Under the pieces are notes generated by a model. That model saw only the letters and a list, made by a program, of their open reading frames with translations. It searched no databases and was not told the origin of the DNA. Of a stretch of DNA of 64,000 nucleotides, positions 8,927-62,201 are shown piece after piece (the first letter of the stretch is position 1; each line of letters starts with the position of its first letter). The translations under genes were made by a program, and so were the position numbers. The DNA is from an uncultured Armatimonadia bacterium. Lineage in GTDB: Bacteria > Armatimonadota > Zipacnadia > Zipacnadales > VGFC01. Location: positions 4,539-68,538 of the forward strand of contig CAZKUN010000013.1 in NCBI GenBank assembly GCA_964555935.1, given 5' to 3'.

Positions 8927-11080
8927 TCACGAGGCCTGCAGAACGGCGATGAGCCGCAACATGCGTTCGCGCAGTTCGCGCATGCGGCGGACGGTCAGTT
9001 CCGGAGCGGGAGTGTACTCCCAGATGTAGCGATCATCGAAGGGGCGGTCCGCGAAGCTATTCACGGGGGACATCCGGCGCGCCTCGGCGAGTAACGCTCG
9101 GGCCTCGGACGGGGCGGCGCCCGAGCGAGACCGGCATAGGCGCTCAAGCGTGCGGAGACAGCGGTAGTCCTCGACGCCCTCGCGTCGCCCCTCCCAGCCG
9201 ATCGTGCCTACGGGTCCCTGCTCCGAGGGTGCCATGTACCACTGACTCCAATCCTCGGGCACGGCCCATGTCCCGTCGGCGTCGCGGGTTAGGGGTTCGG
9301 TCGAGTAGTAGGCCCACTGGCCGAGGCCGCGCAGGCCCGCGCTCCACGTGTAGAAACCACATGCGTATCGGTCAAAGCGCGGGCTCTGGCCACGCTGGTT
9401 GCAGTCGTATCCCCACAGCTCCTTCCCCATCTCCTCTGCGCGGGCGACCGTCGCCTCATCCACGTCCGAGACGCCCGCGATCCACACATCGTAGAGTTCG
9501 CCCACATGCTCGACGCCGTACTGGCCTATGGCGGTGACGGTCCGAGCCTCGGGAACCTGTGAGTAGAGCCGGCCGAATGTCTCCCTCACTCCGGCAACGC
9601 GTTCTGCGTTGTTGGGCTCATCAGCCACGTAGAAGAGCAGAGGAGGCCACCCGAGAAGCTTCCGCCGCTGCAAGAGGTCCCGGACGGTGCCTGGGTCGCG
9701 GAATGCTCCCCAGCCCGGAATGCCCCCGCCGGCAGACAGCAGTATCAGCGGTCTGTCTGGAGCCACGAGCCCCGCGGCCTGTGCGAGCGCCAGCCGTTGC
9801 CGCAGGCCAAGGTAATGCCGAGCGTCGGAGGGCTCGTACTGCATGTCGAGGTCCAGCTCGACCCTAATGTCGCCGCCGCGCGTCTCGCGTTCGGGCGCGA
9901 CGTAGAGACTGACCGATGTCATCCCGTGCTCCGCCATGTCGCGGTAGTAGAGCCTCTGTAGTCGAGGTGATGCCATTGGCTCCGTCAGGTACACGTCGGC
10001 GTAATACATGAAAAACGACACATCGGCGGGATCGAGTTTCACGCGGGGCACGGTGACGGCGATGCTGATGGGGAATCGCCCGCGTTCAGTTTCCGCCTCC
10101 AACTCCAGTCGCAACTCCGGCAGTGACCAGTCCGGGGGCACGCGCACCCGCACGGCGTGCTGCAGGACGTCGCCCCGCTTCACGTCCTCGCGCGCGTGGC
10201 CCTGCTCGGACTCAGCAGGCGGCAGAAGCAGCAGAGGGTAGCGGATGTGTGCCTGGCTGTTGAGCTCGCGCTTGCTGTAACCGATGCGAAACAGCGCGAC
10301 GTCGTCGGCACGTAGCCCCGGGGGCAGGCCTTGGACGCGAAGACGCGCGCCCTCAATATCCCGCAGCGCGTGAAGCATCACCATGACGGTTTCGCGCTCG
10401 CCTGGCGGGCAAGTGGCTCTGATCTCCCCGTCGGGGGCGAGACACTCCTCGCGCAGGGGCATGTACCGCGCCGAGGTGCCCTGCTCCAGTGGGCGCGTGA
10501 ATGCGAGGAAGCCGAGGTCCGATTCGAGCGTCGTCGGGTCGACCGGCGGGTTAACGACGGGACTTACGTCGCCGATGCGAACGGAGTCATCCTGAACGAA
10601 AGTGATCCCGTCCCAGTGCGACTCCGGAGCGTACGACAGGAGCCCGATCTTAACGACGCTGTCAGTCTCCCGCGTCCGGAAGTCAAGCTTGAGTTCGGTC
10701 CATTCGGGGAACCTGGCCCAGCCCGTGGATGCGACACAGATGCCGTTGAGCACGGCGTCATACGCGACGAGCGAGTGGTGCCCGGCGGCCGGCGTGCGGA
10801 TCCAGGCTCGCGCGCGATAGCCCGTGTTGGGCTTTACCGTGATGGGCTGGTAGGCCAGGGCATACGCCGAGCCCTCCTCACGCTGCAGGCGCAGCCACCG
10901 GTCGCCGTCGGTCGCGTCATCTGTCTCCACCGTCGCCGTGACGTTCGTCGTGACGGCCCAGCCCTCGGGCAAACCATCGGCAACGGCCTCGAAGGACGGG
11001 TTGCTCGGAAGATTCGGCGCCCCCTGAGCGACGCCCGCTGACGCGCACAACCAAGCGGTCACGGCTATACAGGTAGTCAT
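8927..11080 (-). CDS. Secreted protein: N-terminal CBM4_9-like beta-sandwich plus TIM-barrel glycoside-hydrolase-like domain (DUF4091/GH123-like?)
   Basis: Signal peptide MTTCIAVTAWLCASAGVAQG. NPSFE...GWAV resembles CBM4_9 entry motifs. YVADEP and W/Y-rich C-terminal segments suggest a glycosidase-like barrel. There is a 4-bp ATGA overlap with the upstream gene (operon). Confidence 0.6.
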   Translation of the reverse strand: MTTCIAVTAWLCASAGVAQGAPNLPSNPSFEAVADGLPEGWAVTTNVTATVETDDATDGDRWLRLQREEGSAYALAYQPITVKPNTGYRARAWIRTPAAGHHSLVAYDAVLNGICVASTGWARFPEWTELKLDFRTRETDSVVKIGLLSYAPESHWDGITFVQDDSVRIGDVSPVVNPPVDPTTLESDLGFLAFTRPLEQGTSARYMPLREECLAPDGEIRATCPPGERETVMVMLHALRDIEGARLRVQGLPPGLRADDVALFRIGYSKRELNSQAHIRYPLLLLPPAESEQGHAREDVKRGDVLQHAVRVRVPPDWSLPELRLELEAETERGRFPISIAVTVPRVKLDPADVSFFMYYADVYLTEPMASPRLQRLYYRDMAEHGMTSVSLYVAPERETRGGDIRVELDLDMQYEPSDARHYLGLRQRLALAQAAGLVAPDRPLILLSAGGGIPGWGAFRDPGTVRDLLQRRKLLGWPPLLFYVADEPNNAERVAGVRETFGRLYSQVPEARTVTAIGQYGVEHVGELYDVWIAGVSDVDEATVARAEEMGKELWGYDCNQRGQSPRFDRYACGFYTWSAGLRGLGQWAYYSTEPLTRDADGTWAVPEDWSQWYMAPSEQGPVGTIGWEGRREGVEDYRCLRTLERLCRSRSGAAPSEARALLAEARRMSPVNSFADRPFDDRYIWEYTPAPELTVRRMRELRERMLRLIAVLQAS

Positions 11081-13896
11081 TTCGCAGCCGTCCAGTGGAT
11101 GGTGTTGGGCATCCGGAAGGTTGGGGCGCCTGGTATGGTTCGATGGGGGTGGTGCGTGTGCGCGGCGCCACGTCCGCCCTCGATGAGATCGAAGCCGGGA
11201 CGGTGTCGCAGAGCGATCGTCGCGCGTCCGTCAGGATTGGCTTGGACGCCGTCGACGGCCAGCGCATAGGTAGTTCCGTCTCCGAACTCGACAGTTACGC
11301 GTTCGTTGGGCAATCCCTCGCGCGCGGGAATCTGCGTATCCACAACAAGCGCGTCCTCATCGTCGCCCGCCTCGACGCAGAGCACGTCCACCACGTTCCC
11401 CTCCGCCGCCGGGGGAGCCGTGATGCTCTGGCCAGCCATCGCGACCTCCGTTCCGTCTACGAGGACCATCTCGGTGGGCTCGTCATCGACCACACGCGCG
11501 AAGGCGTAGCGTCCGGTCACTCGCAGGTCGATATTGGCAGCACCTACGCTGACATCCGGACCCGTGGTTAGGGCGTGGTAGTCAGTGAAGCCTTCGCCGC
11601 GGCAGACGATCCCGACGGCACCCGCTCCGTCGCCTTCGAGCGGCAAGCTCTCGACGCTGGTGAGCCTCGGCGCGTCCCGGAACGGCTCATGGACGGCGGC
11701 GAAGACGCTCTGTAGATCGGAGCCCTCTCGGCGCACGAGCAGCGCGGGCATCGTGTGGTCGAAGACCGCCGCGTTGCTCTCCTTGGCCCGGCGGATCGAC
11801 GGCAGCGCCGCAGTGTAGACCGTCGTGTCGGGCTGGCCCAATAGCGAGGTGTGGAGGCCGCGAGACGGATCGTCCGCATACCGGAACGTCGCCGACCACG
11901 CCTGCGCGCCGTCCCCGCGAGCCACGTCCTCGAACAGGCCATAGAGGGTGTTGACGCCGTCGACGACCGGGTTCCAGCTCTGGGCGATTGTATCCGTCCA
12001 CGGCCGCCGCGCCCAGCCCGGTGGGAGAAGACCCGCCGCATGGGGTTGCATCGGCAGACTGGCCTCCAGCGTCTGGTCGTAGTCGGCGCTGCCGTGGAGG
12101 CACCAGTCGTGCTTGTCCCCGCCCGTGACGCGGAAGACATCGACCACGTAGCCTCCTCCGCCGGGCAACGCCACGAGCGCGAGCGCTCTGCGGTACAGGG
12201 ATGCGATGTCGGGGTAGGCGCCCTCCGACGAGGCCTCGCAGAAACGCAGGAGATCGCCGCACCGTGCCCACGCCATGAGCGCGCCATCCGCGGGAGGGTC
12301 GTCGCCCGACGAGCGCTGATTGGCCTCATTCACGACCACCGAATTATGAGCAACCGTGCTGCATGCGAAGGGCCGCAATATCGTGTGCGTGTAGCCCAAG
12401 TCGGGCAGGAGTTGTCGGCCCGCTCCGAAGAGAAGCAGATCGAGAGCATCGGCATGTTGGTGTCCGTAGCCGCCTGAGAAGTGGAGGTTTGCTTGCACGC
12501 CGCTCTCGCCCGCGCCGACCCCGAGGATGGCATGCCCCATGGCCCACGCAAGTGCCGTGCCGACCGGCCCCTCGCGCGCCTCGGGGATGGGGCGACCGAG
12601 GTTGGCGGCGGGCCAGGCATCGTGGATGGGCGTGACCTCGCCGTCCGGCAACCGCATTCGGTTCAGCGCGGCGATCGACTCCTCGAGCATCGGGACATCA
12701 CTCGCGCCCGAGAATCTGTCGATGTGCAGACCGTCGATGGGGTTGACGTACCCCTCCGGGTCTGAGTAGCCCTTGAGCGGTCCTTCGACGCAGCTCTGCA
12801 GAGAGTAGACCGTTTGGGAGTGATACGATGGGGAGGCCTCGCGCCAGATGCCGTCCGGGTAGAACTGCCGCTCGAGGATCCCGTCCACGCGTCGCAGAGC
12901 GTCGTGGACGAACTCCGGCTCGCCGATGACCCGCCCGATCACCGCCAGCCCTCGTATGAGCGAGCCGTCCATGTTCCCCAGGTAGATCGGGAAGGTGCGC
13001 GTGAAGTTGGCGGTCGCCCGGTGGAATTCTTCAATGTTACGGCGGACATCGGTGCCCAGTTCATCTGAGAGAGCGTCAACCGCCTCGCTGTCGGCCACCC
13101 GGTCGTACGTGCGAGCGAGAGCGGGCGACATCTCCGAGTAGAACCAGTTGTCCAGGCCATCGCCGCGCAAGGTCGAGCAGTACGGGTATGGCGTGCTGTA
13201 TCCTGGGAGGTCTTTCGCCATGCCCGGCACGGGCTGCAATCCGTTGGGCGGTCTCGGCAGCGGCTGGGTGTCGAAGACCTTCATCGCGAACATCGACCAG
13301 TTCTCAATCCCATGCGGGCTGTAGTGCGGATACACCTCCGCCAGCCGGTTCAGGATGATCCCCGCCTGCCGCGCGTGCGGCTCGTCTCCCGTCGCGTGGT
13401 ATATCTTGGCCAGCGCGCCGGCCATGGACTCCATGTATCTCTTCTTGCAGTTCTCGACACGCATCTGCATGAAGTGCTTATAGCCGTCCTCGCCCTCCCA
13501 GTACCGGTAGACGTGCTCCTGTCCGGTGGAGTCGGTGACGCGCGTCTCCTTGTCCAGCGGGTACTCCTCGTTGGGGAAGACCATGTTGCAGAACTTGCAC
13601 TCGATCTGGTCCGGCTCCTCCGGCGACCAGAGCCAGTGGTAGGTATCCGAGACGTTGCCATCATCGCAGTTCGGGCAGAGGATGTGATAGAAGGTCGTTC
13701 GCGGAACGATGAACTCGTCGATCTGCTCGCGTCCGAGGGACATGACGTGCGTGGCCTGCTCTCGGAGCGAATCCACTTCGGCGTCAGTCAACTCCACCGG
13801 GAAGACGGGGTGTTTGACCGGATAGGCCATCGCGGAGGAACAGATCACCACGCTCATTAGGAGCGCCAGGCCACCGAGCATGTTCGCGTGGAGCAT
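11077..13896 (-). CDS. Heparinase II/III-like polysaccharide lyase (alpha/alpha toroid + beta-sandwich), secreted
   Basis: Signal peptide present. Hallmark GGYGHQHADALDLLLFGAGRQLLPDLGYTHT...HNSVVV matches the Hepar_II_III motif H.H.D......D.GY....HNS. There is an unusual N-terminal CxxC...CxxC insert. Confidence 0.8.
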   Translation of the reverse strand: MLHANMLGGLALLMSVVICSSAMAYPVKHPVFPVELTDAEVDSLREQATHVMSLGREQIDEFIVPRTTFYHILCPNCDDGNVSDTYHWLWSPEEPDQIECKFCNMVFPNEEYPLDKETRVTDSTGQEHVYRYWEGEDGYKHFMQMRVENCKKRYMESMAGALAKIYHATGDEPHARQAGIILNRLAEVYPHYSPHGIENWSMFAMKVFDTQPLPRPPNGLQPVPGMAKDLPGYSTPYPYCSTLRGDGLDNWFYSEMSPALARTYDRVADSEAVDALSDELGTDVRRNIEEFHRATANFTRTFPIYLGNMDGSLIRGLAVIGRVIGEPEFVHDALRRVDGILERQFYPDGIWREASPSYHSQTVYSLQSCVEGPLKGYSDPEGYVNPIDGLHIDRFSGASDVPMLEESIAALNRMRLPDGEVTPIHDAWPAANLGRPIPEAREGPVGTALAWAMGHAILGVGAGESGVQANLHFSGGYGHQHADALDLLLFGAGRQLLPDLGYTHTILRPFACSTVAHNSVVVNEANQRSSGDDPPADGALMAWARCGDLLRFCEASSEGAYPDIASLYRRALALVALPGGGGYVVDVFRVTGGDKHDWCLHGSADYDQTLEASLPMQPHAAGLLPPGWARRPWTDTIAQSWNPVVDGVNTLYGLFEDVARGDGAQAWSATFRYADDPSRGLHTSLLGQPDTTVYTAALPSIRRAKESNAAVFDHTMPALLVRREGSDLQSVFAAVHEPFRDAPRLTSVESLPLEGDGAGAVGIVCRGEGFTDYHALTTGPDVSVGAANIDLRVTGRYAFARVVDDEPTEMVLVDGTEVAMAGQSITAPPAAEGNVVDVLCVEAGDDEDALVVDTQIPAREGLPNERVTVEFGDGTTYALAVDGVQANPDGRATIALRHRPGFDLIEGGRGAAHTHHPHRTIPGAPTFRMPNTIHWTAAK

Positions 13897-22560: not shown

Positions 22561-23598
22561 CTAGGCGTAGAATCCGCTGTCGCGCTTGCAGGCCTGGGTC
22601 ACCCGGACGACCTCAACGGCCTCTGCCGGCTTGACGATCAGCGCTTTGCGCTCGCGCAGGTGGGCCCAGACATTGTCGTAGAAGTCGCCGATGTTGTCGC
22701 CGACCGACGGGACCTCTTCGCTCTGCCACGGGATGACGTCGTCGTTCCCGTAAGCGCGCCCCGGTGGCGGCTCCTCGACGACCTCGAGCTTCGCGAGCTT
22801 CTTGGGATCGAACGATTCGATCGTGCTCGTCCGCCCGTCCGAGACCAGCGTCCCCTCGGACCCTAGCACGGTCCACAAGGGCTCGGGGAACTTGCAGGCG
22901 CTTGAGACTTCCATGTCGAACACCCGCCCGTTCTCCGCGCGCAGCAGAACCTTCACGTGGTCCTCGACATCCCCGATTCCGCTGATCAGCCGCAGGTCGC
23001 AGAAGACGTCCTTCACGGTCGAGCCCAGCATCTGCAGCCCCGCGTCGATGTAGTGAGGGCAGGTGTTGTTGAGCACGCCGCCGTGGTGGCTGCGCATCGT
23101 CTGCCAATCGTTCCGGCGGCTGAACCCAAACGACCGCATCCGGATCTCAAAAACATCTCCGATCCGCTTCTCGCGGATGACCTTCAGGATGTGCTGGATG
23201 CAGGGGTTGTAGCGGTTATTGTGGTGAACGAGGAGCTTCTTCTTTGCCTTCTTCGCGGCGGCGACCATGCTGTTTGCCATCGAGACGCTATCGGCGATGG
23301 GTTTCTCGCAGATCGCGTGCCGTCCGCTGCGGAGCACATCCTTCGTGATCGGCCCGTGCGTGTCTGAGTAGCTCGCGACGACCACAACATCCGCGTCGGC
23401 GCCCTTCAGCAGCGCCTGGTGATCATCAAAGCACTCGCAGCCCAACTCCTCCGCGACCTCCGCGCGTCGCTCGGGCAGCCAGTCGGTGACGGCGGTGACT
23501 TGGTAGCGCTTGTCATCGCGCACGCGTTTGACGTGGATGTTGTAGCCCGAACGCCCGAGTCCGACGATACCCAACTTGATCGGCTTCTTGCTTGCCAT
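22561..23598 (-). CDS. Gfo/Idh/MocA-family oxidoreductase
   Basis: IKLGIVGLGRSG Rossmann motif, EKP motif, 345 aa. Confidence 0.85.
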   Translation of the reverse strand: MASKKPIKLGIVGLGRSGYNIHVKRVRDDKRYQVTAVTDWLPERRAEVAEELGCECFDDHQALLKGADADVVVVASYSDTHGPITKDVLRSGRHAICEKPIADSVSMANSMVAAAKKAKKKLLVHHNNRYNPCIQHILKVIREKRIGDVFEIRMRSFGFSRRNDWQTMRSHHGGVLNNTCPHYIDAGLQMLGSTVKDVFCDLRLISGIGDVEDHVKVLLRAENGRVFDMEVSSACKFPEPLWTVLGSEGTLVSDGRTSTIESFDPKKLAKLEVVEEPPPGRAYGNDDVIPWQSEEVPSVGDNIGDFYDNVWAHLRERKALIVKPAEAVEVVRVTQACKRDSGFYA

Positions 23599-23619: not shown

Positions 23620-24360
23620 TTACGGCGAGTGTTCGTTCACATATTCCAGCGCGTCGCGTAGATACTGCAGCGTGTTCTCGCGGTCTTGCACTTCCATCTC
23701 GACCACGACATCCCCTGGGTAGCCATCCTCTGCCAGCCTCGCCAGCAACCCAGGCAGATCGATCTCACCCGTTCCGAACGGCACTGATTGCCGCCCGACT
23801 TGGTCCTTGATGTGCACCAGCTCGAATCGCCGGTCTAACGCCTCACAAGCCTCGCGCCAGTCAATGCCCACTGAGTGGAACTGCCCGACCTCGAGCGTGC
23901 ACTTCAGCCGCGCGTCATCGACGGTCGACAGGATTCTGTCGTAATCCTCAAGCGTCTCGATTGCCGAGCCCGCGTGGTTCTGCAGGACGGGGATCACGGG
24001 CAGGCCATCGATCTCGTCGAGCAGCGCCTTAACCGCCGGCGCGTCTCGATCCAGGTCCGTCGGCTTCACGAGCGCGGCTCGCACACCTAGCTCCGCGCCC
24101 AACCGGCACGTCTTCGCCGCGTTGGCGATTGATGTCTCGTGGTCCTCGGTAATTGGGGGAAGATGTATCGATGAGAAGTCGATGCCGTACTTGTCGGTGA
24201 AGCCGAGATACGCGTCCGGATCCGCATCAGCAGACAGCGCCGACTTGCACCAACTCGTGAACGCCTCAAAGCGCGTGTAGCCAATCTGCGCGTAGGCTGA
24301 GAGCACCTCGGCGAGGCTCATCTCGGGGTTGGAGCACGGGCTAACGGCGAACGAAAGCAT
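23620..24360 (-). CDS. Sugar phosphate isomerase/epimerase (xylose-isomerase-like TIM barrel, AP_endonuc_2 fold)
   Basis: Conserved acidic/His positions (HLPP, E...HIKD, VVEME) are typical of the family. The internal ATG at 24360 (MLSFAVSP) is preferred over 24432. Confidence 0.75.
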   Translation of the reverse strand: MLSFAVSPCSNPEMSLAEVLSAYAQIGYTRFEAFTSWCKSALSADADPDAYLGFTDKYGIDFSSIHLPPITEDHETSIANAAKTCRLGAELGVRAALVKPTDLDRDAPAVKALLDEIDGLPVIPVLQNHAGSAIETLEDYDRILSTVDDARLKCTLEVGQFHSVGIDWREACEALDRRFELVHIKDQVGRQSVPFGTGEIDLPGLLARLAEDGYPGDVVVEMEVQDRENTLQYLRDALEYVNEHSP

Positions 24361-24447
24361 GGCGTCTCTCCCGGCGTGGCGGTTCGCCCGGCGACGGTGA
24401 TTACCTGCACGCTGCCCCCGTGGCGCAGGCATTCTTGCCTGCGGCCG

Positions 24448-26028
24448 CTACTCCGGCTTGAACATCTGGAAATCGCCGCTGCCAACATCTAGGTCGGCAT
24501 ACTTATCAAGCCGGAACGTATGCCAGTAGCACGCCCAGCGCGCGTCGGCCTCCAACACGGCGCCCAGGCGGCGAATTATCGCTCGTTTCGCGTCCCCACG
24601 CCCGGGGTCGCTTGATAGGTCGCGATACGTCGCGTCCGCGAGATCGTACAGCTCGTCGCGGTCAGACGTGAGGTTGTAGGTGTACATGTACTTGGTCCCG
24701 TCGACCTCCGCGAAGGTCGAGACCGCCGGGTTCGGCGCGACATGCCAGCCGCACTCGAAGAGGATCGGGTCGCGCTCCGGAATCGCTTCGCCGCGGATGT
24801 GCGGCAGCAGTGATTCACCATCGAGACGCTCCGCCGGAGCGATGCCGGCGGCCTCGAACACTGTCGGCGCGATGTCGAGCAGCGAGACCATCTCGTCAAC
24901 CGTCCGTCCCGCGCCCCTCTCCCTGGGGAGCTTCACGCTCAGCGGCACCATCGCCACCTTTGGGTGGCCGTAGACACCCTTGTCGACCAACGCCCGCTCG
25001 CAGTTCATCTCGCCATGATCGCCCGTGAGGACGATGAGGGATTCATCGTAGATGCCGCGCTCGTCGAGCGCGTTCAGGAAGCGCCCTATCGCGGCGTCGA
25101 GCGCCTCGATCTGCACGAAGTTCATCAGCATGTACTGGCGCGCGGTCGCCTCGTCATACATCCCCCAGTTGCGCAGGTACACGTCATACACGCGCGGCCA
25201 GTCCTGCCCCTTGAGCGCCGCGTGGTAGCTCGCCGGCAACTGGATGTGTTCGGCCAGCTCCCGCGCCCGCTCGGCGTAGCACCCCGGCACCAGGAACGGC
25301 TGGTGTGGCGCGAAATAGTCGAGTTGGAGATACACGGGGTCGCCGGCTGATTGCCCGAGCGCGCTATCGAGCGTCTCAGTCGCCAGCCTCGAGAGGTACT
25401 GACTGTACGTTCCCTCCTCGGGGAACTCGCGTCCATCGGATTGCGCGATCCAGCCGCCGCAGTTGTTGCCGGGCGTCTGGCGATCCGGGCGCAGGCCCTT
25501 GATGGGATTAGGCCACGTCGGCGGGGTGACGCCCAAGTCGCGGAGGTACCGGTGGTAGCCGTCGTCATCAGCCAGCGGCGGCGCCCAACGGTTCCAGGGC
25601 GAGTCGCTCTCGCCGAACGCGTCCATGAACTTGGCGGCCCCGACGTGGCACTTGCCGACATGTTTCGTGGTGTAGCCGGTGGCTCTTAGGTACTCCGGGA
25701 AGATGGCATCCGAATCCCGCAGGCCCACTTCCCAGCCGTCGTGCGCGCGCTCCTCGTTCGCCGTGAGGTAGGGGTACCGCCCGGTGAGGTATCCGGCTCG
25801 CGATGGGCCGCACAGTGGCGAGCAACTGAACGCGTTGCTGAATCGCGTTCCGTCGGCCATGATCCGGTCGATGTTCGGCGTGCGCAGGTGCTCGCGAATT
25901 GGGGCGGCAGGATCGTAGCTCTCGCGTGGAATCATGTCCACGCTGATGAAGAACACGTTCGGCCCGGTTCGGCCATCATGCTCGAATGGATGGGCTCCGG
26001 TGCGCTCGTTCAGGTAGCGTTGTCTCAT
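24448..26028 (-). CDS. Cys-type (formylglycine) sulfatase, no signal peptide
   Basis: The canonical signature CGPSRAGYLTG is present. Alkaline-phosphatase-like core motifs are found (NVFFISVD, GKCHVG, LTGDHGE). The start is assigned to the internal ATG at 26028. Confidence 0.85.
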   Translation of the reverse strand: MRQRYLNERTGAHPFEHDGRTGPNVFFISVDMIPRESYDPAAPIREHLRTPNIDRIMADGTRFSNAFSCSPLCGPSRAGYLTGRYPYLTANEERAHDGWEVGLRDSDAIFPEYLRATGYTTKHVGKCHVGAAKFMDAFGESDSPWNRWAPPLADDDGYHRYLRDLGVTPPTWPNPIKGLRPDRQTPGNNCGGWIAQSDGREFPEEGTYSQYLSRLATETLDSALGQSAGDPVYLQLDYFAPHQPFLVPGCYAERARELAEHIQLPASYHAALKGQDWPRVYDVYLRNWGMYDEATARQYMLMNFVQIEALDAAIGRFLNALDERGIYDESLIVLTGDHGEMNCERALVDKGVYGHPKVAMVPLSVKLPRERGAGRTVDEMVSLLDIAPTVFEAAGIAPAERLDGESLLPHIRGEAIPERDPILFECGWHVAPNPAVSTFAEVDGTKYMYTYNLTSDRDELYDLADATYRDLSSDPGRGDAKRAIIRRLGAVLEADARWACYWHTFRLDKYADLDVGSGDFQMFKPE

Positions 26029-26247
26029 GTGGTGCTCCGCGCCGACATCGGGCTCCTGGGGGTGTCTACGTAGAAAGTTGGCGCAAATGGAGTGGCCGCG
26101 TCGACTATATGTGTAGGGAAGCCTGGCATTTGGGCTTTCGCCCAATTACGAAACTCCCCTTTACATAGGATCAATCACCCCCACCAAACCGAATCAACGA
26201 ACAGGGAACCCGCAGGTTGGGTCGCCCGCGCTACCGAACGTCCCGCC

Positions 26248-28117: not shown

Positions 28118-30718
28118 GTGAACCTGCCTGGCATGACACGCACGCTTGGGTTCTCAATCGGTTTGGCCCTCCTCTCAGGCACCATCGTCGCGCAAGGAGA
28201 TGTGGTCCCGGTCGGCCCAGGGGCGGGCTGGGTCGAGGCGGTCACGGGCGCCTTGGAGGCGGGGGCGACCGTCCGCCTGCAGGCGGGGCGCTATGAACTG
28301 ACCGAGCCGATTCGGCTGACTCCCGAGCACTCCGGAACCATCGAAGCGGCGCCGGGCGCCGAGGCGATCGTCAGCGGCGGCGTCATCATCGATGGTTGGG
28401 AGATCGACGGCGACCGGTGGACCGTCACGCTGCCGGAGGTCGCGTCGGGCGACTGGCACTTCGCCCAGCTCTGGGCCAATGGCGAACGGCGGTACCGGCC
28501 GCGCTGGCCCGAGGATGGCTACAGCTACATCGCCAGGTCGGCTCCCTCGACGGAGGAGGGGCAAGGGCACGACCGGTTCCGCTTCGACGCGGGTGACATC
28601 CGCGCGGACTGGCAGAACCTCAACGATGTCGAGATGCTCATCTTCCACAGTTGGAGCATGTCGCGGATCCCGCTGGCGAGCGTCGATGAGGACCAGCGCG
28701 TGGTGACGCTGGCCGGGCGGACGTGGAACAGCCAGATCGGCGCGCTCGCCCCGAGAAAACGCTACATCGCCGAGAACGTGCTGGAGGCGCTGAACGAGCC
28801 CGGCGAGTGGTACCTCGACCGTGGCACGGGCCTGTTGACGTACATCCCGAAGCCCGGCGAGACACCCGACAACACGGAGATCATCGTCCCGCGGGCCGAG
28901 CAACTCGTAAGCATCGTCGGCGATCCGGAGATGGGGATGGCGGTCAGTGACATCACCATCAGGGGGATTACCTTCGAACACGCGAACGTCACCGTTCCCG
29001 AGACGGGCTACTGCGTCGCGCAGGCGGAGGTGGGCGCGCGAAGCACCAATGGCAAGAGCCCGTTTGGATCGGCGATTGAGCTGAGCGGCACGCGGGACTG
29101 CGTCATTGAGGGTTGCGTCGTCCGGCACGTGGGCTACTACGCGGTTGAGTTTGGCGTCTCATGCCACGAGAACGTGTTGGGGTTTTGTGAGGTGTGGGAC
29201 GGGGGGGGGGGGGGGGTGAAGCTCGGGACAGCCAATCGCTACCCCGAGGGCGATGGGCGGAATGCCGCGGGCAACGTGGTCGAGGACTGCGCGATGGCCC
29301 ATGGCGGGCGCATGCACCCGGCGGCAGTGGGCGTGTGGATCGGCAACTCGGGCGATAACCAGGTCATCCACAACGACATTCACGACTTCTACTACACGGG
29401 CGTCTCGGTCGGGTGGAACTGGAGCTGGGGCTACAGCCCGGCGAAGAATAACCTCGTCAGCCATAACCACATCTACGATATCGGCCAGCAACGATTGAGC
29501 GACCTCGGCGGGATCTACACGCTCGGCGAATCAGAGGGCACGGTGCTGAGTTACAACCGCATCCACGACGTGTCGCGCGTGGCGTATGGCGGCCTCGGCA
29601 TCTACCACGACCAGGCGACGATGGGTATTCTGAGTGAGAACAACATCGTGTATCGGACGCAAGACAGCGGCTTCAACGTTCACTGGGGCAAGGACAACAC
29701 CGTCCGGAACAACATCTTCGCGTTCGGCGAGACCAGCCAGATCAATCCCGGTCGCACGGACCTCACCGGACCGATTACGTTCGAGCGGAATCTCATCGTC
29801 TGGGACGGCGGATCGGTGCATCGGGCGCGGGGCATTCGGGATGATTTCGCCTCGGACAGAAACCTGTATTGGCCGGGCGCGGCGGATGGAGAGATGACCT
29901 TCGATGGTGATCTGTCGCTGGACGAGTGGCAGGATGCCGGACGGGACGTGAACTCCATCGTCGCCGATCCGGGCTGCGCTGACCCGGCGAATGGTGACTT
30001 CACCCTCAAGCCGAATTCACCCGCGCTGGACATCGGCTTCGAGCCGATTGACGCGAGCGAGATTGGTCGCCAGGCGGAGACGCGAGATGTCGGCGACGTG
30101 CCTCACGCGTTCCCCGTGGCGGGGCCGCCGCCGCCGAAGCCGATTGCCGAGGACTTCGAGTTTGAGACGGTTGGCGCGCCGGCGGGCGGAGCGAAGACCT
30201 TCGAGAACAACGAGGCGGAGACGGCCCGCATCAGCGACGAACAGGCGGCATCTGGGAAGCAATCGCTGAAGCTGATGGACGGACCGGGCGAGCCGACGTT
30301 TAACCCGCACGTCTACTATGTGCCGGGCTTTGATGATGGGATGCTGCGAGGGGCGTTTGACATCATGCTTGAGCCGGGGGCGATGCTCTCGCACGAGTGG
30401 CGCGACCGGTCGGCGCCGTACAAGGTCGGCGCATCGATCCGGATCGACGCGGATGGAATGCTCCTGGCGGGCCAGCAGGAGCTGATGCAGCTTCCGCACG
30501 GTGAGTGGATACATGTGGAGATCACGAGGGGTATGGGCGTAGAAGCAACGGCGACGTTTGAGCTGAGCGTGACCTTGCCGGGCGAAGCACCGCACGTGTT
30601 CGAGGGTCTTCCATCGGATCCCGAGTGCACCGAACTGCATTGGCTGGGATGGGTGGCGGGGGCGGTGGCGCCGGTGGCGATCTACATCGACAACATCATG
30701 CTGGCACCCGCTGAGTGA
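28118..30718 (+). CDS. Secreted right-handed parallel beta-helix repeat protein (pectin-lyase fold) with C-terminal beta-sandwich domain
   Basis: Signal peptide present. Repeated NxxxN/asparagine-ladder segments are seen (NNIFAF, HNDIHDF, NHIYDIG, NRIHDV). The coding sequence contains an in-frame G16 tract (VWDGGGGGVKLG). Confidence 0.8.
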   Translation: MNLPGMTRTLGFSIGLALLSGTIVAQGDVVPVGPGAGWVEAVTGALEAGATVRLQAGRYELTEPIRLTPEHSGTIEAAPGAEAIVSGGVIIDGWEIDGDRWTVTLPEVASGDWHFAQLWANGERRYRPRWPEDGYSYIARSAPSTEEGQGHDRFRFDAGDIRADWQNLNDVEMLIFHSWSMSRIPLASVDEDQRVVTLAGRTWNSQIGALAPRKRYIAENVLEALNEPGEWYLDRGTGLLTYIPKPGETPDNTEIIVPRAEQLVSIVGDPEMGMAVSDITIRGITFEHANVTVPETGYCVAQAEVGARSTNGKSPFGSAIELSGTRDCVIEGCVVRHVGYYAVEFGVSCHENVLGFCEVWDGGGGGVKLGTANRYPEGDGRNAAGNVVEDCAMAHGGRMHPAAVGVWIGNSGDNQVIHNDIHDFYYTGVSVGWNWSWGYSPAKNNLVSHNHIYDIGQQRLSDLGGIYTLGESEGTVLSYNRIHDVSRVAYGGLGIYHDQATMGILSENNIVYRTQDSGFNVHWGKDNTVRNNIFAFGETSQINPGRTDLTGPITFERNLIVWDGGSVHRARGIRDDFASDRNLYWPGAADGEMTFDGDLSLDEWQDAGRDVNSIVADPGCADPANGDFTLKPNSPALDIGFEPIDASEIGRQAETRDVGDVPHAFPVAGPPPPKPIAEDFEFETVGAPAGGAKTFENNEAETARISDEQAASGKQSLKLMDGPGEPTFNPHVYYVPGFDDGMLRGAFDIMLEPGAMLSHEWRDRSAPYKVGASIRIDADGMLLAGQQELMQLPHGEWIHVEITRGMGVEATATFELSVTLPGEAPHVFEGLPSDPECTELHWLGWVAGAVAPVAIYIDNIMLAPAE
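29201..29216 (+). repeat. Homopolymeric G16 tract inside the beta-helix CDS (encodes Gly5)
   Basis: Read directly: gac gggggggggggggggg tgaag. Confidence 0.9.
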
Positions 30719-30728: not shown

Positions 30729-31523
30729 ATGTCCACATTGACCACGTGCCTGATGTTGGCGCTCGCGCTGACCGCGCAGTCGATCGGGCAGCCTCCGGGA
30801 CCCGAGCAATGGGAGCCTCTGCCGGAACTCACCGATGAGTTCGATGGCGACGAGCTGGACGTGACGAAATGGCATGACCACAACCCGGGCTGGAAGGGCC
30901 GACAGCCAGCGTTCTTCGCCCCCGAGAACGTGACGGTCAGCGACGGGAGCATGCATGTTGCGGCCAAACGGGAGGACCGCGAAGGGCTTCCCGAGGGGTA
31001 TCACACATTCACGACGGGCGCGGTGCAGAGCACGGTGCTCGTGAAGTACGGGTATTTCGAGGTGCGGTGCAAGGCCGGACATTCGCGGGCGTCGGCGGCG
31101 TTCTGGTTCTATGAGAACACGCCGCACATGTGGACGGAGATCGATGTCTTCGAGATCGGCGCGGGCGCGCCGGATCACGCGAAGAAGATGCACATGAACG
31201 TGCACGTGTTCCACACGCCGGTTGAGAAGAAGCACTGGGCCAAGGCGGGCGTCCACGAACATGCGGAGAACCTGTCTGAGGACTACCACGCGTATGGGCT
31301 GAAGTGGACGCCGAAGGCGATCGTGTTCTACTTCGACGGCGAGGAAGTTGGGCGTCGTGAGAACACGCACTGGCACCAGGCGCTGACGATGAACTTCGAT
31401 TGCGAGACGATGCCGACGTGGTTCGGACTGCCGGATGAGGCCAACCTTCCGGCGGCGTTCAGCACGGACTACGTTCGGGCGTGGAGGCTGGCGGGGGCGA
31501 CGGAGGTGCGGACGAGGGAGTAG
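30729..31523 (+). CDS. Glycoside hydrolase family 16 (secreted)
   Basis: Signal peptide present. The catalytic ExDxxE motif is WTEIDVFE. Size (264 aa) and beta-jellyroll W/F pattern fit GH16. Confidence 0.85.
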   Translation: MSTLTTCLMLALALTAQSIGQPPGPEQWEPLPELTDEFDGDELDVTKWHDHNPGWKGRQPAFFAPENVTVSDGSMHVAAKREDREGLPEGYHTFTTGAVQSTVLVKYGYFEVRCKAGHSRASAAFWFYENTPHMWTEIDVFEIGAGAPDHAKKMHMNVHVFHTPVEKKHWAKAGVHEHAENLSEDYHAYGLKWTPKAIVFYFDGEEVGRRENTHWHQALTMNFDCETMPTWFGLPDEANLPAAFSTDYVRAWRLAGATEVRTRE

Positions 31524-31545
31524 GGGTGGGTGGACGGCGACGGCC

Positions 31546-31585
31546 GACGGGCTGGAAGCCCGTCGCTACGCGACGGCGGACGGCG
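31546..31585 (+). repeat. Copy of dispersed hairpin repeat (gacgggctggaagcccgtcgctacgcgacggcggacggcgg)
   Basis: Same architecture as 27977..28025 (hairpin + tcgctacgcg tail). It lies in the GH16-GRE intergenic region, upstream of the reassigned GRE start. Confidence 0.75.
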
Positions 31586-31603
31586 GTGAAGGCGAGGGAA
31601 GAG

Positions 31604-33757
31604 ATGGCGACAGTCGATACTGATTTGCGCGTGCGGACGGAAGCTACAGAGCGGGTCGGCAGGCTTCGAGAGGGAGCCTTGGAGAACCCGCCCGCGAACT
31701 GGCAGGCGGCGCTTCATGGCACGGAGTCGATGATGGCCTCCGTGGGGGAGACGTGGTGGGTCGCGCGGCGCGGCCGGCGGGTGGCGGACATCCTCCGGAA
31801 CATGGAGCCCGAGATCGGCCCGGATGACCCCATCGTGGGCCGGACGCCGGCCCGGCCGCCCACTGAGGCGGAGTCAGAGCGGCTGGCCAAGGCGCACGCG
31901 TTCAACCAGACGCAACCGGCGGCGGGCGGGCAGTCGGGTCACATGTCGCCGGATTTCGACACGCTGCTTGCGCTCGGGTGCCGGGGCGTGCAGGCGCGGA
32001 TCGACGCGATTGTGGGCGGGCTCGCCCCGTCCGACCCGGAGGCGACGGAGCGGCTGGCGTTCTACCGAGGCGCGCGCGAGGCGCTGGATGGCCTGTGCGA
32101 CTTCGCGGCGCGCCATGCTGATGAAGCGGAGCGGCTGGCGGCGGAGGCGGATGGCGCTCGCGCCGACGAGTTGCGGGAGATCGCGGCCGTCTGCCGGCGC
32201 GTGCCCGCGCAACCGGCCGAGACGTTCCACGAGGCGCTGCAAGCCGCGCACTTCCTGATCTACGCGCTGAACATGGCGGACGGAACCGGCCTCTCATCGC
32301 CCGGCAGCGTGGATCGCTGGGCCGCCTCGCATCTGCAGGCTGATCTAGAGTCGGGACGCATCACGCGCGAGCGGGCGCAAGAACTGCTGGATTGCTTCTT
32401 CCTGACATTCAACGCGTACATCGGCAAGGGCCTGGCGATTGGCCTGCTGATCGGTGGACGCGACGCCGACGGCGAGGACGTCAGCAACGAGCTGACGTGG
32501 ATGGTGCTGCACGCGATCGACCACACGCGGCTGAGCTACCCCGGCGCGGGCTTGCGCGTTCACGCCGGCACCGATCCCGGGCTGATCGACCTCTCGCTCG
32601 AGATCCTGGCTGAGGGCACGAGCCACCCGGCGCTGTTCAATGACGAGGTCATCACGGCGTCGCTACGGCAAATGGGCCTGCCACCGGAGGACGCCTGTGA
32701 CTACATGAACTCGACGTGTGTTGAGATCACGCCGTCGGGGAAGAGCAACGTCTGGGTCGCGAGCCCGTACTACAATCTCCCGCAGGTGCTGCTCGATATT
32801 GTCGGTGATGTCGCGTGCGGAGTAGTTGGTGAGCCGGGCACGCTGGACGAGATCATCGAGGAGTTCTCCGGCAGGTTGGCTGAGCAAATATCGTCGGGCG
32901 TCGCCGAGCAGAACCGCTTGAGGCACTCGTGCATGGCGCACCGCAACTTCCCGCTGGCGTCGTGCTTTGTCAGCGATTGCATCGAGCGCGGCCTCGACAT
33001 CGACCAAGGCGGCGCGCGCTACAACTGGGTCGAGTGCAGCTTCGTCGGGCTGGCGACGGCGGCTGATAGCCTGGAGGCGGTGCGAGAGTTCGTCATTGGC
33101 GGCGCGCTGACGTGGGCCGAACTGCGCGCCATGATGGAGGCGAACTTCGAGGGACATGAGGCCTGGCGACAGAGGCTCCTGAACGAGCCGGCGAAGTATG
33201 GGAATGGCGAGGCTGGGGTGGATGGGATCGCAGCGAGGTTGATGGAGGTCGCGGTGGGCCACTGTCGCAGACACCGCGTGGTGCTGGGTGGGACGTACGA
33301 GCCAGGGCTTTTTGCGTGGATCATGCACGGGGAATTGGGTAAGGACACGGGCGCGACGCCCGACGGTCGGACGGCAGGCGAGTGCCTCAGCCCTGGCCCG
33401 GACCCGATGCCCGGACGAGCGACGAATGGTCCCACGGCGGCGACGTTGTCGGTAACGAGCTTCGACCACCAGCCGCTGATCGGCGGCGTGGCGTTCAACC
33501 TGAAGTTCTCGCCCGCGACACTGGCCAAACCCGAGCAACGCAAGAAGCTGGCGGCGCTCGTGCAGACCTACTTCGACCGGGGCGGCTTCCAGACACAGGT
33601 CAACGCTGTATCCGCCGAGACGCTTCGCGACGCTCGCGAGAACCCGGAGCAGCACGCGGATCTCTTGGTGCGCGTGGCGGGGTACTCGGACTACTTCGTC
33701 AACATGACGCCGCTCATGCAAGATGAGTTGATCGGGAGGACGGAGTCGGAGTTGTAG
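31604..33757 (+). CDS. Glycyl radical enzyme (PFL-like superfamily, 1,2-eliminase/dehydratase-type)
   Basis: C-terminal glycyl-radical motif VRVAGYSDYFVNMTP. Cys loop NSTCVEITPSG with the Cys-Val-Glu typical of non-PFL GREs. 717 aa from the ATG at 31604. The upstream part of track ORF 31481 is a repeat element. Confidence 0.85.
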   Translation: MATVDTDLRVRTEATERVGRLREGALENPPANWQAALHGTESMMASVGETWWVARRGRRVADILRNMEPEIGPDDPIVGRTPARPPTEAESERLAKAHAFNQTQPAAGGQSGHMSPDFDTLLALGCRGVQARIDAIVGGLAPSDPEATERLAFYRGAREALDGLCDFAARHADEAERLAAEADGARADELREIAAVCRRVPAQPAETFHEALQAAHFLIYALNMADGTGLSSPGSVDRWAASHLQADLESGRITRERAQELLDCFFLTFNAYIGKGLAIGLLIGGRDADGEDVSNELTWMVLHAIDHTRLSYPGAGLRVHAGTDPGLIDLSLEILAEGTSHPALFNDEVITASLRQMGLPPEDACDYMNSTCVEITPSGKSNVWVASPYYNLPQVLLDIVGDVACGVVGEPGTLDEIIEEFSGRLAEQISSGVAEQNRLRHSCMAHRNFPLASCFVSDCIERGLDIDQGGARYNWVECSFVGLATAADSLEAVREFVIGGALTWAELRAMMEANFEGHEAWRQRLLNEPAKYGNGEAGVDGIAARLMEVAVGHCRRHRVVLGGTYEPGLFAWIMHGELGKDTGATPDGRTAGECLSPGPDPMPGRATNGPTAATLSVTSFDHQPLIGGVAFNLKFSPATLAKPEQRKKLAALVQTYFDRGGFQTQVNAVSAETLRDARENPEQHADLLVRVAGYSDYFVNMTPLMQDELIGRTESEL

Positions 33758-33764
33758 GACGGCA

Positions 33765-33797
33765 GGGCGCGATAAATCGCGCCCCTACGATTGGCGG
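33765..33797 (+). repeat. Copy of dispersed hairpin repeat (gggcgcgat-aaa-tcgcgccc + ctacgattggcgg)
   Basis: Hairpin + CTAC..GGCGG tail. It overlaps the stop codon of the convergent sulfatase gene. Confidence 0.7.
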
Positions 33798-59342: not shown

Positions 59343-62201
59343 CTACGACGGCGAGAGCGTGTAGCTCTGGCCTGGCTTGGTTGCGAACTCGATGACGTTC
59401 TTGTCGACGGATTCGGCGGCGAGTTTTGGGCGGGCATCGAGGCGAAGGGCCGAATGCGCGCGGACGCGGCACGTGTTGCCAATCGAGGAGTGGACAATGG
59501 CGTGGGTGAGCTTGCCGTCGGCCCACTCGATATCGACCTCGAAGCCGCCGCGAGCGCGGAGCCCGGTCACGTGTCCGGTCGGCCAGGCTGCGGGGAGCGC
59601 GGGCAGCAGGTCGATCTCGCCATCGTGGCTCTGAATGAGCATCTCGGCGATGGCCGCGCAACCGCCGAAGTTGCCATCGATCTGGAAGGGCGGGTGGTTG
59701 TCGAACATGTTCGGCAGCGTTGACTTGGCGAGCAGCGCCTGGAGGTTCTCGTGGCACGTCTCGCCATCGCGTAAGCGCGCGAAGAAGTTGGTGATCCAAG
59801 CCCGGCTCCAGCCGGTGTGGCCGCCGCCGTGGGCGAGGCGGTGATCGAGGGTGGCGCGCGCGGCGTCGGCGAGTTCGGGCGTGCTGAAGACTGTGATCCG
59901 CCGACCCGGGTGCAGGCCGTAGAGGTGGGAGATGTGGCGATGGCCCGGTTCGGGTTCCTCGAACTCCTCGGGCCACTCCTGGAGGCGGCCGTCGCTGCCG
60001 ATCTTCATCGGCGTCAGGCGCGCGCGGGCGGCCTTGACCTCCATGCGGAAGTCGGCGTCGGTGTTCAACGCCTCGCTCGCCTCGATGCAGTTCTGGAAGA
60101 CGTCATCGATGATCTGATGGTCCATCGTCGCGCCCATGACGACATTCGCCACCTGCCCGTCGGGCGTGCGGAACGAGTTCTCTGGCGAACTCGACGGCCC
60201 GCTGACGAGCATCCCCGTGCGCGGGTCCTCAACGAGGTAATCGAGGAAGAAGAGGGCGGCTTCCTTGATGATCGGATAGCCCGTCTCCGCCAGGAACTCG
60301 CGGTCTCCGCTGTACTCGTAGTGCTCCCAGAGGTGACGCGTGCACCAGGCCGCGCTGAAGGGCCAGAGGCCATACCCCGTAGCGCCGATGGAGCTGGCGT
60401 ACCACCAGGCATCAGTGGTGTGATGCGCCACGAACCCGCGGCAGCCGTAGATCTTCCGGGCGGCCTCGCGACCACGTGGGAGGAGGTTCTCAGTGAGCTG
60501 GATGAAGGGCTCGTGGCACTCGGTGAGGTTGGCTACCTCGGCGGGCCAGTAGTTCATCTGGATGTTGATGTTGATGTGGTAATCAGCGTTCCAGGGCGGG
60601 CTCATCCCGGCTTCCCACAGCCCCTGGAGATTGGCGGGCATGCATCCGGGTCGCGAGGAGCTGATCAGCAGGTAGCGGCCGAACTGGAAGTACTGCTCGA
60701 GGAGTTGGGTATCGACAGCGCCTTGCTTCACGGCGGCGAGACGTTCGTCCGTGGGGAGGTTGGTGGCTTCGGTAGCGCCGAGGTCGAGATCGACCCGGCG
60801 GAAGAGCCGCTGGTGCTCCTTGACATGCCGCTTGCGGAGTTGGGCGTAGCCCTTGGCGGATGCGTCGGCCATGCGCTGGATGCACAGCTCGCGCGGGTCA
60901 TCGCCGAAGTAGCTTGTCGCGGCCACGATGAGGATTGTGGCCGAATCGGCGCCATCGATCCGCAGACCATCGTCCGCGGGGCTGACCGTGCCGCCATTGG
61001 TTCTCACCTTCAGCCGGGCTTCGTATCGGACGCCCTTCCCGTCGCCCGCGTGGCCGTACATGATGAGTCCGCCAGATCCATCGGACTCGACGGTCACGTC
61101 CCGCGAGCGAGAGAGGCCGACCGTGCATGATGCTGGACCGGAGAGGCGCGCCACTAAGACGTCATCAGCGGCGCTGGAGAAGACCTCGCGCGAGAGCCTC
61201 TCGCCATCCGCGCTGTAGGCAGTGGCCGCGATGGCGGAATCGAGGTCGAGATCGCGGCGGTAGTCGACGACGGTCCGGGGTCGGTCGAACGTCAGCGTGA
61301 GGTCGCCGAGGGCCTGGTACGTGTGGAGGCCGGGATCGATTCGCGTGCCCATGAGCTTCCCTTGGGCCAGGCGCTGACCCTCGACATAGTTGCCCTCGAA
61401 GAGCAACCGGCGGACCTCGTCGAGGTTACCGAGCGCCTCCGGGTTCTCGCGCTGGAAGGGCTCGCCGGTCCAGAGGCTGTCTTCGTTGAGTTGGATGAGT
61501 TCCCGATCAACACCGCCGAAGACCATCGCCCCGAGACGCCCGTTGCCAACCGGCAGAGCCTCGATCCACTCGTTGGCCGGCCGACGGTACCAGAGCGTGA
61601 GATCGCCCTCTGGCGGCGCGGCCTCGCCCGCGTGCTGGGTCACCTTGCCGCCGAGGTCGCTTGCTGCCGTGCATTGCTCAGCCAAAGCCTTGCCCTCCGG
61701 GCTGTCGGGGTCCGCGGGCCAGTCGGCCCACGTCAGGTCGTCGCCGGCGCGGAGTTGCCAGGAACCGCTCAGGCTCATAGATCCCTTGGCGCAGCCGAGG
61801 GAAAGCTCCGGGCCGGTCATCCCGCCGTTTCCGCCGTTGTCAAAGACGCGGACGGCGATGAGGTTGTAGTCGCCCCAGCGGACGGCACCCGGCGGAACTT
61901 GGCATTCGCGACGGGTCTGCCACGCGGTGCGGGGCTCGGGCGGGAGCTGGCCGGTGGCGCCGATCTTCTCACCGTTGAAGAACGACTCGTCGCAATCGTC
62001 GATGGCGCCGAGTTTCAGCGTCAGAGTCTCGCCGCGCCACTCCTTAGGGACTTCCACGAAGCATCGGTACCATGCGAAGCCGTCGTGCTGGCCCAGTCCG
62101 ACGCGGCCCCAGTCGGCGGGCACGGGGACGGTGTCCCAGGAGTTCTGGGCAAGGCTGACCGACGCGATGAGAATGGCGAGAGAGGTCGTGATGAGGCGCA
62201 T
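59343..62201 (-). CDS. Glycoside hydrolase family 95 (alpha-L-fucosidase/alpha-L-galactosidase type) with extra N-terminal ~170-aa sugar-binding domain
   Basis: Signal peptide present. GH95 N-terminal signature [28 protein letters not shown]...IQLNEDSLW. (alpha/alpha)6 catalytic region with NADYHININ. Confidence 0.85.

Follow-up and report, generated by a model that had tools for sequence, protein, structure and literature searches.

A CXE motif is common to all 1,2-eliminases and to the newer isomerases among the glycyl radical enzymes (GREs), as summarised in a superfamily review of June 2026 (PMC13450708). The Glu of this motif hydrogen-bonds the substrate hydroxyl, and in glycerol dehydratase (GD) the leaving hydroxyl is protonated by His164, which acts as the general acid (PMC13450708). 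Strand beta1 holds a common substrate-contacting position, which is occupied by Gln193 in IslA, Asp216 in CutC and His160 in HypD, and an Arg is found four residues upstream of it (IslA Arg189, HypD Arg156; PMC8473560). In the sulfonate lyases an Arg/Gln/Arg anchor (Arg189, Gln193 and Arg678 in IslA) is conserved and essential (PMC13450708, PMC6453916). YbiW and PflD are C-O lyases of 1,5-anhydroglucitol-6-phosphate and 1,5-anhydromannitol-6-phosphate; they open sugar ring C-O bonds (PMC13450708) and they alone provide a precedent for GREs acting in sugar catabolism. Here we analyse a GRE gene which is located in a 64-kb stretch (the window) of contig CAZKUN010000013.1 from an uncultured Armatimonadia bacterium. 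On balance, we regard its product as a functional CXE-type GRE from an uncharacterised clade, which would perform radical C-O cleavage on a cytoplasmic hydroxylated substrate that plausibly derives from a sugar of sulfated algal galactans.

The protein matches the Pfam domains PFL-like (PF02901, 5.6e-106) and Gly_radical (PF01228, 3.4e-28). Its length of 717 aa is counted from an ATG, which has also been selected by gene callers on independent contigs; an alternative GTG start at position 31481 would result in a 43-nt overlap with the preceding GH16 gene. The C-terminal motif is LLVRVAGYSDYF, which includes G693. A first-pass annotation, made from the sequence alone, had called attention to a Gly-radical motif and a TCVE Cys loop. 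RVAGYSDYF and STCVE are indeed present, and the Gly corresponding to G693 was retained on realignment in 78 of 78 clade sequences. The AlphaFold (AF2) model of the protein has a pLDDT of 89.5 and a pTM of 0.92. When this model was used for a fold search, TMq values of 0.87-0.92 were obtained for all GRE eliminases; the top matches were the propanediol dehydratase (PD) structures 5i2g and 9rco, the weakest eliminase matches were IslA, IseG and HpsG, and subfamilies were not discriminated. The protein does not reach the cutoff of any curated NCBIfam model; this applies to TIGR01774 for the PFL2/glycerol-dehydratase subfamily (407 bits, cutoff 678), HpfG and HpsG (312 and 296 bits, cutoff 1000), NF043068 for HypD (305 bits, cutoff 1100), TIGR04394 for CutC (277 bits, cutoff 1050) and TIGR01255 for pyruvate formate-lyase (PFL; 99 bits, cutoff 994).

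Relatives were collected by a one-genome-per-species scan with two signature peptide patterns of the clade, one of which, the RVAGYSDYF-type Gly-loop pattern, also picks up HypD-like enzymes. At least 599 stretches matched and 80 loci were kept, all of them with at most 48% identity to the window protein. The joint alignment of 109 sequences consists of 78 sequences of the clade, 23 HypD-like GREs that the scan had also yielded, YbiW, PflD and PflB from E. coli, and five PDB-derived references, for which the aligned segments of GD, PD, another PD (9rco), HypD and CutC were used. MAFFT is unreliable at the ends of these fragmentary references (positions 113 and 278 in CutC and GD), and pairwise HMMER alignments were used there. 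The mapping of the beta1 column was validated by the HypD-like loci, which show the Arg in 22 of 23 and the His in all 23 cases, in agreement with PMC8473560.

Five residues are invariant in all 78 clade members: R690 and G693 in the Gly loop, C372 and E374 in the Cys loop, and, on beta1, H113. The clade-signature residues S370, T371 and I375 occur in 77 of 78 sequences, and Y389, F570, W572 and H575 are, like S370 and T371, conserved in at least 75; all clade-specific pocket residues are kept in at least 66 of the 78 sequences and most of them in at least 75. While other GREs have (I/S/V)-G before the catalytic Cys, the clade has S370-T371, and I375 follows the Glu. Tyr389 is located on beta6 and corresponds to CutC Tyr506 and HypD Tyr450, while F570, W572 and H575 are on beta8. 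The signature of the clade thus comprises the S-T-C-V-E-I Cys loop, Gly109 and His113 on beta1, Tyr389 on beta6 and Phe570, Trp572 and His575 on beta8, together with a size of about 700-740 aa. With its C372-V373-E374 motif, the window GRE is a CXE-type enzyme of the eliminase/isomerase class. H113 aligns with GD His164, PD His166 and the corresponding His of YbiW and PflD. The presence of His at a site where CutC has Asp216 and IslA has Gln would favour an oxygen leaving group. A second difference from CutC is Val385 in place of Thr502. In two unrelated Firmicutes genomes assembled from metagenomes, the clade GREs (L019:9022-11106 and L061:34-1272) end in RVAGFPLGD and not in RVAGYSDYF, which may represent a Gly-loop variant or a shared frameshift.

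The assignment to the eliminase type, already proposed in the first-pass annotation, is upheld. With PflB the protein has the superfamily fold and the Gly loop in common, but identity is only 24%, and T371-C372 is found where PflB has its Cys-Cys pair, so that there is a single Cys with a Glu at +2. Because this pair is lacking, the window GRE is not a PFL, and the database annotation "formate C-acetyltransferase" is not justified. Identity of the clade to GD, PD, HypD, CutC, YbiW and PflD is 32-35%. When a neighbour-joining tree was computed with the characterised GREs (100 bootstraps; full-length IslA, HpsG, HpfG, HplG and arylacetate decarboxylase are not part of it), the clade was monophyletic in 96 of 100 bootstraps and had no stable characterised sister. 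Alignment and tree set the clade apart from all characterised GREs; it is large and without an assigned function. We found no paper that describes it or that links a GRE to sulfatase or polysaccharide loci.

A homology search with the window GRE returned 925 proteins or protein clusters at E<=1e-20, a count that includes other GREs. Among the best 120 of these, nearly all have 700-745 aa, and they are unnamed or are called "pyruvate formate lyase family"; they come from metagenome-assembled genomes (MAGs) of Armatimonadota (including Zipacnadales and Chthonomonadales), Anaerolineae, Latescibacterota and Clostridia. Overall, the clade occurs in Armatimonadota, Planctomycetota, Lentisphaerota, Chloroflexota and Clostridia; the 80 kept loci include Clostridia/Oscillospiraceae, Lentisphaeria, Victivallales, Kiritimatiellia, Planctomycetota, Armatimonadota, Chloroflexota and Gemmatimonadota. 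A cultured carrier is Oligosphaera ethanolica DSM 24202 (Lentisphaeria), a strict anaerobe.

The short length of the protein had been pointed out before. It is indeed shorter than the characterised GREs of 780-850 aa, since N-terminal and loop segments are missing, but this is the clade norm and not a truncation, because all clade members share these losses and have about 700-740 aa. For selection analysis, the gene was compared with L099, a relative with 90% identity from another metagenome. With a dN of 0.052 and a dS of 0.47, the resulting dN/dS of 0.11 shows that the gene is under strong purifying selection and is not decaying. The identical protein sequence is found in several independent metagenome assemblies.

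As reported at first reading, no activase is encoded in the window: none of the 38 large open reading frames (ORFs), which are all large ORFs called in the 64 kb, has a Radical_SAM domain in the Pfam scan, tblastn with 34 GRE activases from related loci resulted in noise (best E 0.045), and all six-frame matches to CX3CX2C are in short or antisense ORFs. However, what had been considered an anomaly turned out to be the majority state. An activase is adjacent to the GRE in 15 of 54 clade loci. In 14 of these it is 1-160 nt away; in L007 the distance is 772 nt, with an IclR gene in between. When only loci with flanks of at least 3 kb on both sides are counted, 24 of 31 lack an adjacent activase (7 have one), and with flanks of at least 8 kb these are 16 of 20 (4 have one), including Oligosphaera ethanolica and all Armatimonadota. 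In the HypD-like loci of the same scan the activase is almost always adjacent. An unlinked activase is thus the norm for the clade. In Armatimonadetes bacterium CG2_30_59_28, the clade GRE (L032, contig MNXM01000192.1) has no activase nearby, while activase P0238 is encoded on contig MNXM01000018.1 (L105), directly upstream of a different GRE. Therefore, in at least one member of the Armatimonadota an orphan clade GRE is accompanied by an activase encoded elsewhere in the genome.

Directly beside an activase in L105 and in L050 we found members of a second CXE-type family (GRE2), with a GCTET Cys loop, a RIGGYSE/T Gly loop and a length of 707-735 aa. They are 38% identical to each other and about 29-32% to the window GRE, and represent another uncharacterised CXE family. 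In L050 (Sedimentisphaeraceae) the clade GRE gene is followed by the activase gene and then by GRE2. Among GREs whose Gly loops resemble each other, cross-activation has been documented, e.g. by the PFL activating enzyme (PFL-AE) on TdcE.

The GRE gene is preceded on the same strand by a gene for a GH141-like protein and a GH16 gene, with gaps of 10 nt between the first two and 80 nt between GH16 and GRE; from this spacing the three genes are probably co-transcribed. The GH16 protein is closest to beta-porphyranases and carrageenases (PDB matches 8ep4, porphyranase A/B and carrageenases). A Cys-type sulfatase gene is convergent with the GRE gene, with 27 nt between the stop codons, and its product must be leaderless because there is no possible upstream start. 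A second Cys-type sulfatase also has no evident leader, and the two may point to desulfation in the cytoplasm. Pfam and motif analysis thus bear out the GH16 and sulfatase neighbours, as well as the GH95 gene, that had been noticed at first. In addition, the window contains lambda-carrageenase-propeller-like, chondroitinase-B-like, heparinase-II/III-like and GH123-like genes, and the locus is a sulfated-galactan-type degradation island.

This arrangement is not restricted to the window. The order GH141-like, GH16, GRE is repeated in the independent metagenome contigs L004-L006, and the gene order of the window is also seen in several assemblies of marine metagenomes that carry the labels FUCH17 and FUCH22; the FUCH17 contigs are likely from the ETNP oxygen-deficient zone (Eastern Tropical North Pacific). 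In the subclade of the window (61-70% identity), the GRE gene directly follows, in the same orientation, a gene for a glycan-cleaving protein in 4 of 6 loci. In L001, L002 and L108 the preceding gene codes for a conserved heparinase-II/III-like protein of 1,170 aa without Pfam match; among themselves the three copies show 72% identity, and they are distant matches to the heparinase-II/III-like gene of the window (E = 2.5e-14). Sulfatases are encoded within 10 kb of the GRE in the window, L001, L002 and L003. Across the clade they occur in 7 of 55 loci. The linkage to sulfatases in a carbohydrate-active enzyme (CAZyme) locus, which had been called unusual, is real in the window's subclade but weak across the clade.

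The 172 neighbour proteins of clade GREs were analysed by all-against-all clustering and aggregated Pfam counts. The only frequent partners include the activase and AraC or IclR regulators. Recurring at low frequency are regulators, URO-D-like proteins (uroporphyrinogen-decarboxylase/methyltransferase family), sulfatases, AP_endonuc_2/UxuA-like TIM barrels, SDR and GFO/IDH/MocA proteins and DegT aminotransferases, and the Firmicutes operons are individually heterogeneous. URO-D-like genes, often found together with UxuA/AP_endonuc_2-like TIM barrels, are the most recurrent non-regulatory family (8 of 55 clade loci: L002, L008, L015, L017, L021, L028, L050, L053), and one (L105:3850-5055) is also near a GRE2-activase pair. 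AP_endonuc_2 genes recur in L001, L007 and L105 and make up 4 of 100 immediate neighbours, and GFO/IDH/MocA genes in L008 and L044, which belong to one cluster, with further ones in L108.

For the reaction we propose the following scheme. An activase encoded elsewhere in the genome would install the radical on Gly693, from where it would move to Cys372. The resulting thiyl radical would take a hydrogen atom from the carbinol carbon of a small cytoplasmic substrate, while Glu374 would deprotonate the carbinol hydroxyl, resulting in a ketyl radical. His113, as the general acid in analogy to glycerol dehydratase, would protonate the oxygen leaving group on the neighbouring carbon, which might be a hydroxyl or a ring or ether oxygen. 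The C-O bond would then break and Cys372 would give the hydrogen atom back. Since a leader is missing from the GRE and the two sulfatases also appear to be cytoplasmic, a cytoplasmic role is the simplest reading: imported oligosaccharides would be desulfated and cleaved in the cytoplasm, and the GRE would act on the small hydroxylated molecule which results. As this marine bacterium has the GRE gene together with genes for leader-bearing GH141-like and GH16 proteins and for leaderless sulfatases, the substrate of the GRE is plausibly a sugar, or a derivative of one, that is freed from a sulfated galactan of algae and undergoes anaerobic processing in the cytoplasm.

That a GRE cleaves a C-O bond of a sugar is plausible by analogy to YbiW and PflD, which open the ring of an anhydro-sugar by ketyl-radical chemistry and share the CXE loop and the beta1 His with the window GRE. 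However, identity to these is only 32-33%, there is no affinity in the tree, and their Cys loops are IGCIET or VGCVEL. They are encoded together with an adjacent activase, phosphotransferase system (PTS) components, a sugar phosphatase and an aldolase, none of which is found near the window GRE. Several further observations weigh against a role in galactan breakdown. The pocket residues S370, V385, Y389 and H575 are nearer to those of HypD, an amino-acid dehydratase, than to those of the sugar-acting YbiW and PflD. No conserved catabolic partner or pathway was found across the clade in the neighbour analysis. Many members, notably those in Clostridia, are bare modules of an AraC or IclR regulator, GRE and activase beside housekeeping genes. 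Sulfatases are the top neighbour family in activase-less loci, yet no more than 5 of 100 immediate neighbours belong to it, and the phyla concerned are sulfatase-rich. The spacer between GH16 and GRE contains a hairpin, and spacing is the only argument for co-transcription with GH16. Finally, a GRE activase of the window's own genome was not found in the window and the contig fragments examined, and among the best 120 matches listed in activase homology searches none is attributable to the MAG of the window.

The similarity of the pocket to that of HypD leads to a different view, in which the enzyme is a HypD-like dehydratase or lyase whose hydroxylated substrate is derived from an amino acid or is another non-carbohydrate metabolite, and the gene is found among CAZyme genes by coincidence. 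We consider this unlikely, but it deserves to be taken seriously. HypD and its relatives HplG, HpyG and HpzG share with the window GRE the Ser before the Cys loop (S370), V385, Tyr389, His575, the beta1 His113 (HypD His160) and the RVAGYSD(Y/H)F Gly loop with its SDYF tail. Most clade members are outside of CAZyme loci, and URO-D-like, MTTB and Amidohydro_2 neighbours recur. N-methyl-hydroxyprolines arise from demethylated betaines. They are the substrates of HpyG and HpzG (PMC13450708). However, HypD Arg156 is replaced by Gly109, and the site of HypD Asp278, at which 20 of 23 HypD-like loci have Asp, carries Gly, Gln or Leu in clade members (Gly229 in the window GRE). The Thr-Thr pair on beta8 is replaced by W572-I573, identity is 32%, and the clade does not pair with HypD in the tree. 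The gene directly follows that for a glycan-cleaving protein in 4 of 6 close relatives.

A bolder version of the preferred carbohydrate reading, in our opinion an improbable one, would have the STCVEI clade perform a radical reaction not described so far on a carbohydrate unit peculiar to sulfated algal or host glycans. Examples are the opening of the ether bridge of 3,6-anhydrogalactose or a ketyl-radical elimination by which a sugar loses a sulfate or ether substituent. A single unlinked activase, located beside a GRE2 gene (GCTET), would then serve several paralogous GREs.

The first-pass annotation had itself offered two functions, neither of which is sustained. One was a C-S lyase for sulfonates such as isethionate or 2,3-dihydroxypropane-1-sulfonate (DHPS), or else an enzyme for sulfate esters that couples radical chemistry to the release of sulfur. 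Sulfatases on both sides of the gene, a shared CXE loop and overall fold, and HpfG and HpsG being among the better NCBIfam matches might speak for it, but these scores are far below the cutoff and the Arg/Gln/Arg anchor is absent. The site of IslA Arg189 is occupied by Gly109 in 76 of 78 clade members, that of Gln193 by His113 in all 78, and no Arg is found in residues 560-582 of the window GRE, the beta8 region in which the equivalent of IslA Arg678 was located by spacing only. Among the eliminases, IslA, IseG and HpsG are the least similar in fold and sequence, the window contains no sulfite reductase, sulfonate transporter or sulfoacetaldehyde genes, and radical elimination of a sulfate ester has no precedent. 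We thus consider such a function to be very unlikely.

The other proposal was a B12-independent 1,2-propanediol or glycerol dehydratase, which would ferment propanediol from fucose or rhamnose freed by GH95 and other hydrolases. The ten-stranded barrel of GD (1R8W) and PD (5I2A, 9RCO; TMq 0.91-0.92), the RVAGYS Gly loop, the CXE Cys loop and the proposed general acid on beta1 (H113, GD His164) are shared, PD structures are the top fold matches and a GH95 gene is present. However, the fold match does not discriminate between eliminases, the Cys loop is STCVEI and not IGCVEP, identity is 32-35%, and the window GRE is about 70-120 aa shorter through N-terminal and loop losses. The diol-binding residues are replaced: H281/S282 by G229/L230, Tyr339 (or Phe) by A278, the W-H-D triplet after the Cys loop by W384-V385-A386 (Asp447 by A386), and Y-x-S/V-S-x-N on beta8, in the region of GD Tyr640, by F-x-W-I-x-H (F570-x-W572). 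The TIGR01774 score is below the cutoff and the clade is apart from GD and PD in the tree. Genes for a microcompartment shell, pdu-type proteins, aldehyde dehydrogenase, lactaldehyde reductase or the fucose pathway are lacking in the window, the activase is usually unlinked in the clade, and the GH95 gene is 26 kb away on the other strand. A diol dehydratase is therefore scarcely probable.

That the gene is a decaying or non-radical relic in an organism without activase, as had been hinted at, is hardly credible: although the window has no activase, none of the best 120 matches listed was assigned to its MAG and, to our knowledge, cultured Armatimonadota are aerobes, the dN/dS is 0.11, all residues for radical chemistry are invariant, the model is confident over the full length, unlinked activases are the rule in the clade, Oligosphaera ethanolica included, an activase is encoded in another Armatimonadota MAG whose clade GRE is an orphan, and the identical protein recurs in independent assemblies.

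Table 1. Features of the GRE locus and of related loci. Positions refer to the window unless a locus is given.
Feature	Position	Strand	Basis	Remarks
GRE, 717 aa, STCVEI clade	31604..33757	+	Pfam, tree, AF2 model	
Gly loop RVAGYSDYF	33671..33697	+		G693 (33680-33682), predicted radical site
Cys loop NSTCVEITP	32708..32734	+		C372 (32717-32719), predicted thiyl radical; E374 (32723-32725), predicted general base
His113, beta1	31940..31942	+		Equivalent to GD His164, HypD His160, CutC Asp216, IslA Gln193
GH141-like right-handed beta-helix protein	28118..30718	+	Pfam Beta_helix, GH141_M	With leader; first gene of the putative GH141-like/GH16/GRE unit
GH16	30729..31523	+	Pfam GH16	N-terminal hydrophobic leader
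Hairpin GACGGGCT-GGA-AGCCCGTC	31546..31564	+		GH16-GRE spacer; 8 bp, GC-rich, no T-run, no Rfam match
Sulfatase, Cys-type (CAPSR), 418 aa	33785..35041	-	Pfam Sulfatase	Leaderless; convergent with GRE
Second sulfatase, Cys-type (CGPSR)	24448..26145	-	Pfam, motif	No evident leader
Xylose-isomerase-like TIM barrel (AP_endonuc_2)	23620..24432	-	Pfam	
GFO/IDH/MocA oxidoreductase	22561..23598	-	Pfam	
URO-D-like protein	62343..63437	-	Pfam	29 kb from GRE
GH95 fucosidase-like gene	59343..62201	-	Pfam Glyco_hydro_95_cat, 2.4e-180	
Heparinase-II/III-like gene	11077..13896	-		
GRE2 family members	L105:7674-9869, L050:12964-15087			Each directly beside an activase
Proteins of about 1,170 aa	L001:6458-9979, L002:4203-7760, L108:6506-9988			Directly upstream of GRE

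A scan for promoters and terminators did not exceed the expectation from shuffled sequence, and there is no plus-strand terminator between the GH141-like, GH16 and GRE genes. No riboswitch was recognised, as Rfam gave no match in window positions 20000-40000 and none at the GRE in nine clade loci. Neither a formylglycine-generating enzyme nor an anaerobic sulfatase-maturating radical-SAM enzyme is encoded in the window. Beside the degradative genes there are seven glycosyltransferase genes of GT2 and GT4 types (39045-47555), which are probably for the synthesis of exopolysaccharide or cell envelope. Three ORFs have no significant Pfam match: 15757-17079(+) with 440 aa, 21055-22491(-) with 478 aa and 35943-37538(+) with 531 aa, the latter with weak GH88/GH127-like matches only (E 0.0013 and 0.039). 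From about 26 kb to 64 kb the GC skew remains positive, with genes on both strands, and its cumulative value rises from 0.04 to 1.95.

GREs perform chemically difficult anaerobic steps, and each newly characterised clade has given a new pathway up to now, be it for choline, hydroxyproline, isethionate or anhydro-sugars. The clade described here is large, phylogenetically broad and mis-annotated as pyruvate formate-lyase, and its pocket is unlike that of every solved GRE. With a cultured carrier, Oligosphaera ethanolica DSM 24202, and compact GRE-activase operons in Clostridia, it is experimentally tractable. The occurrence of such a GRE among genes for sulfated-galactan degradation in one lineage, whose source metagenomes are probably from a marine oxygen-deficient zone, suggests that there is a missing anaerobic step in the turnover of algal polysaccharides. 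If the clade does perform a new reaction on glycans, anaerobes in anoxic marine particles, sediments and guts would be able to carry out without oxygen a step for which aerobes use other means.

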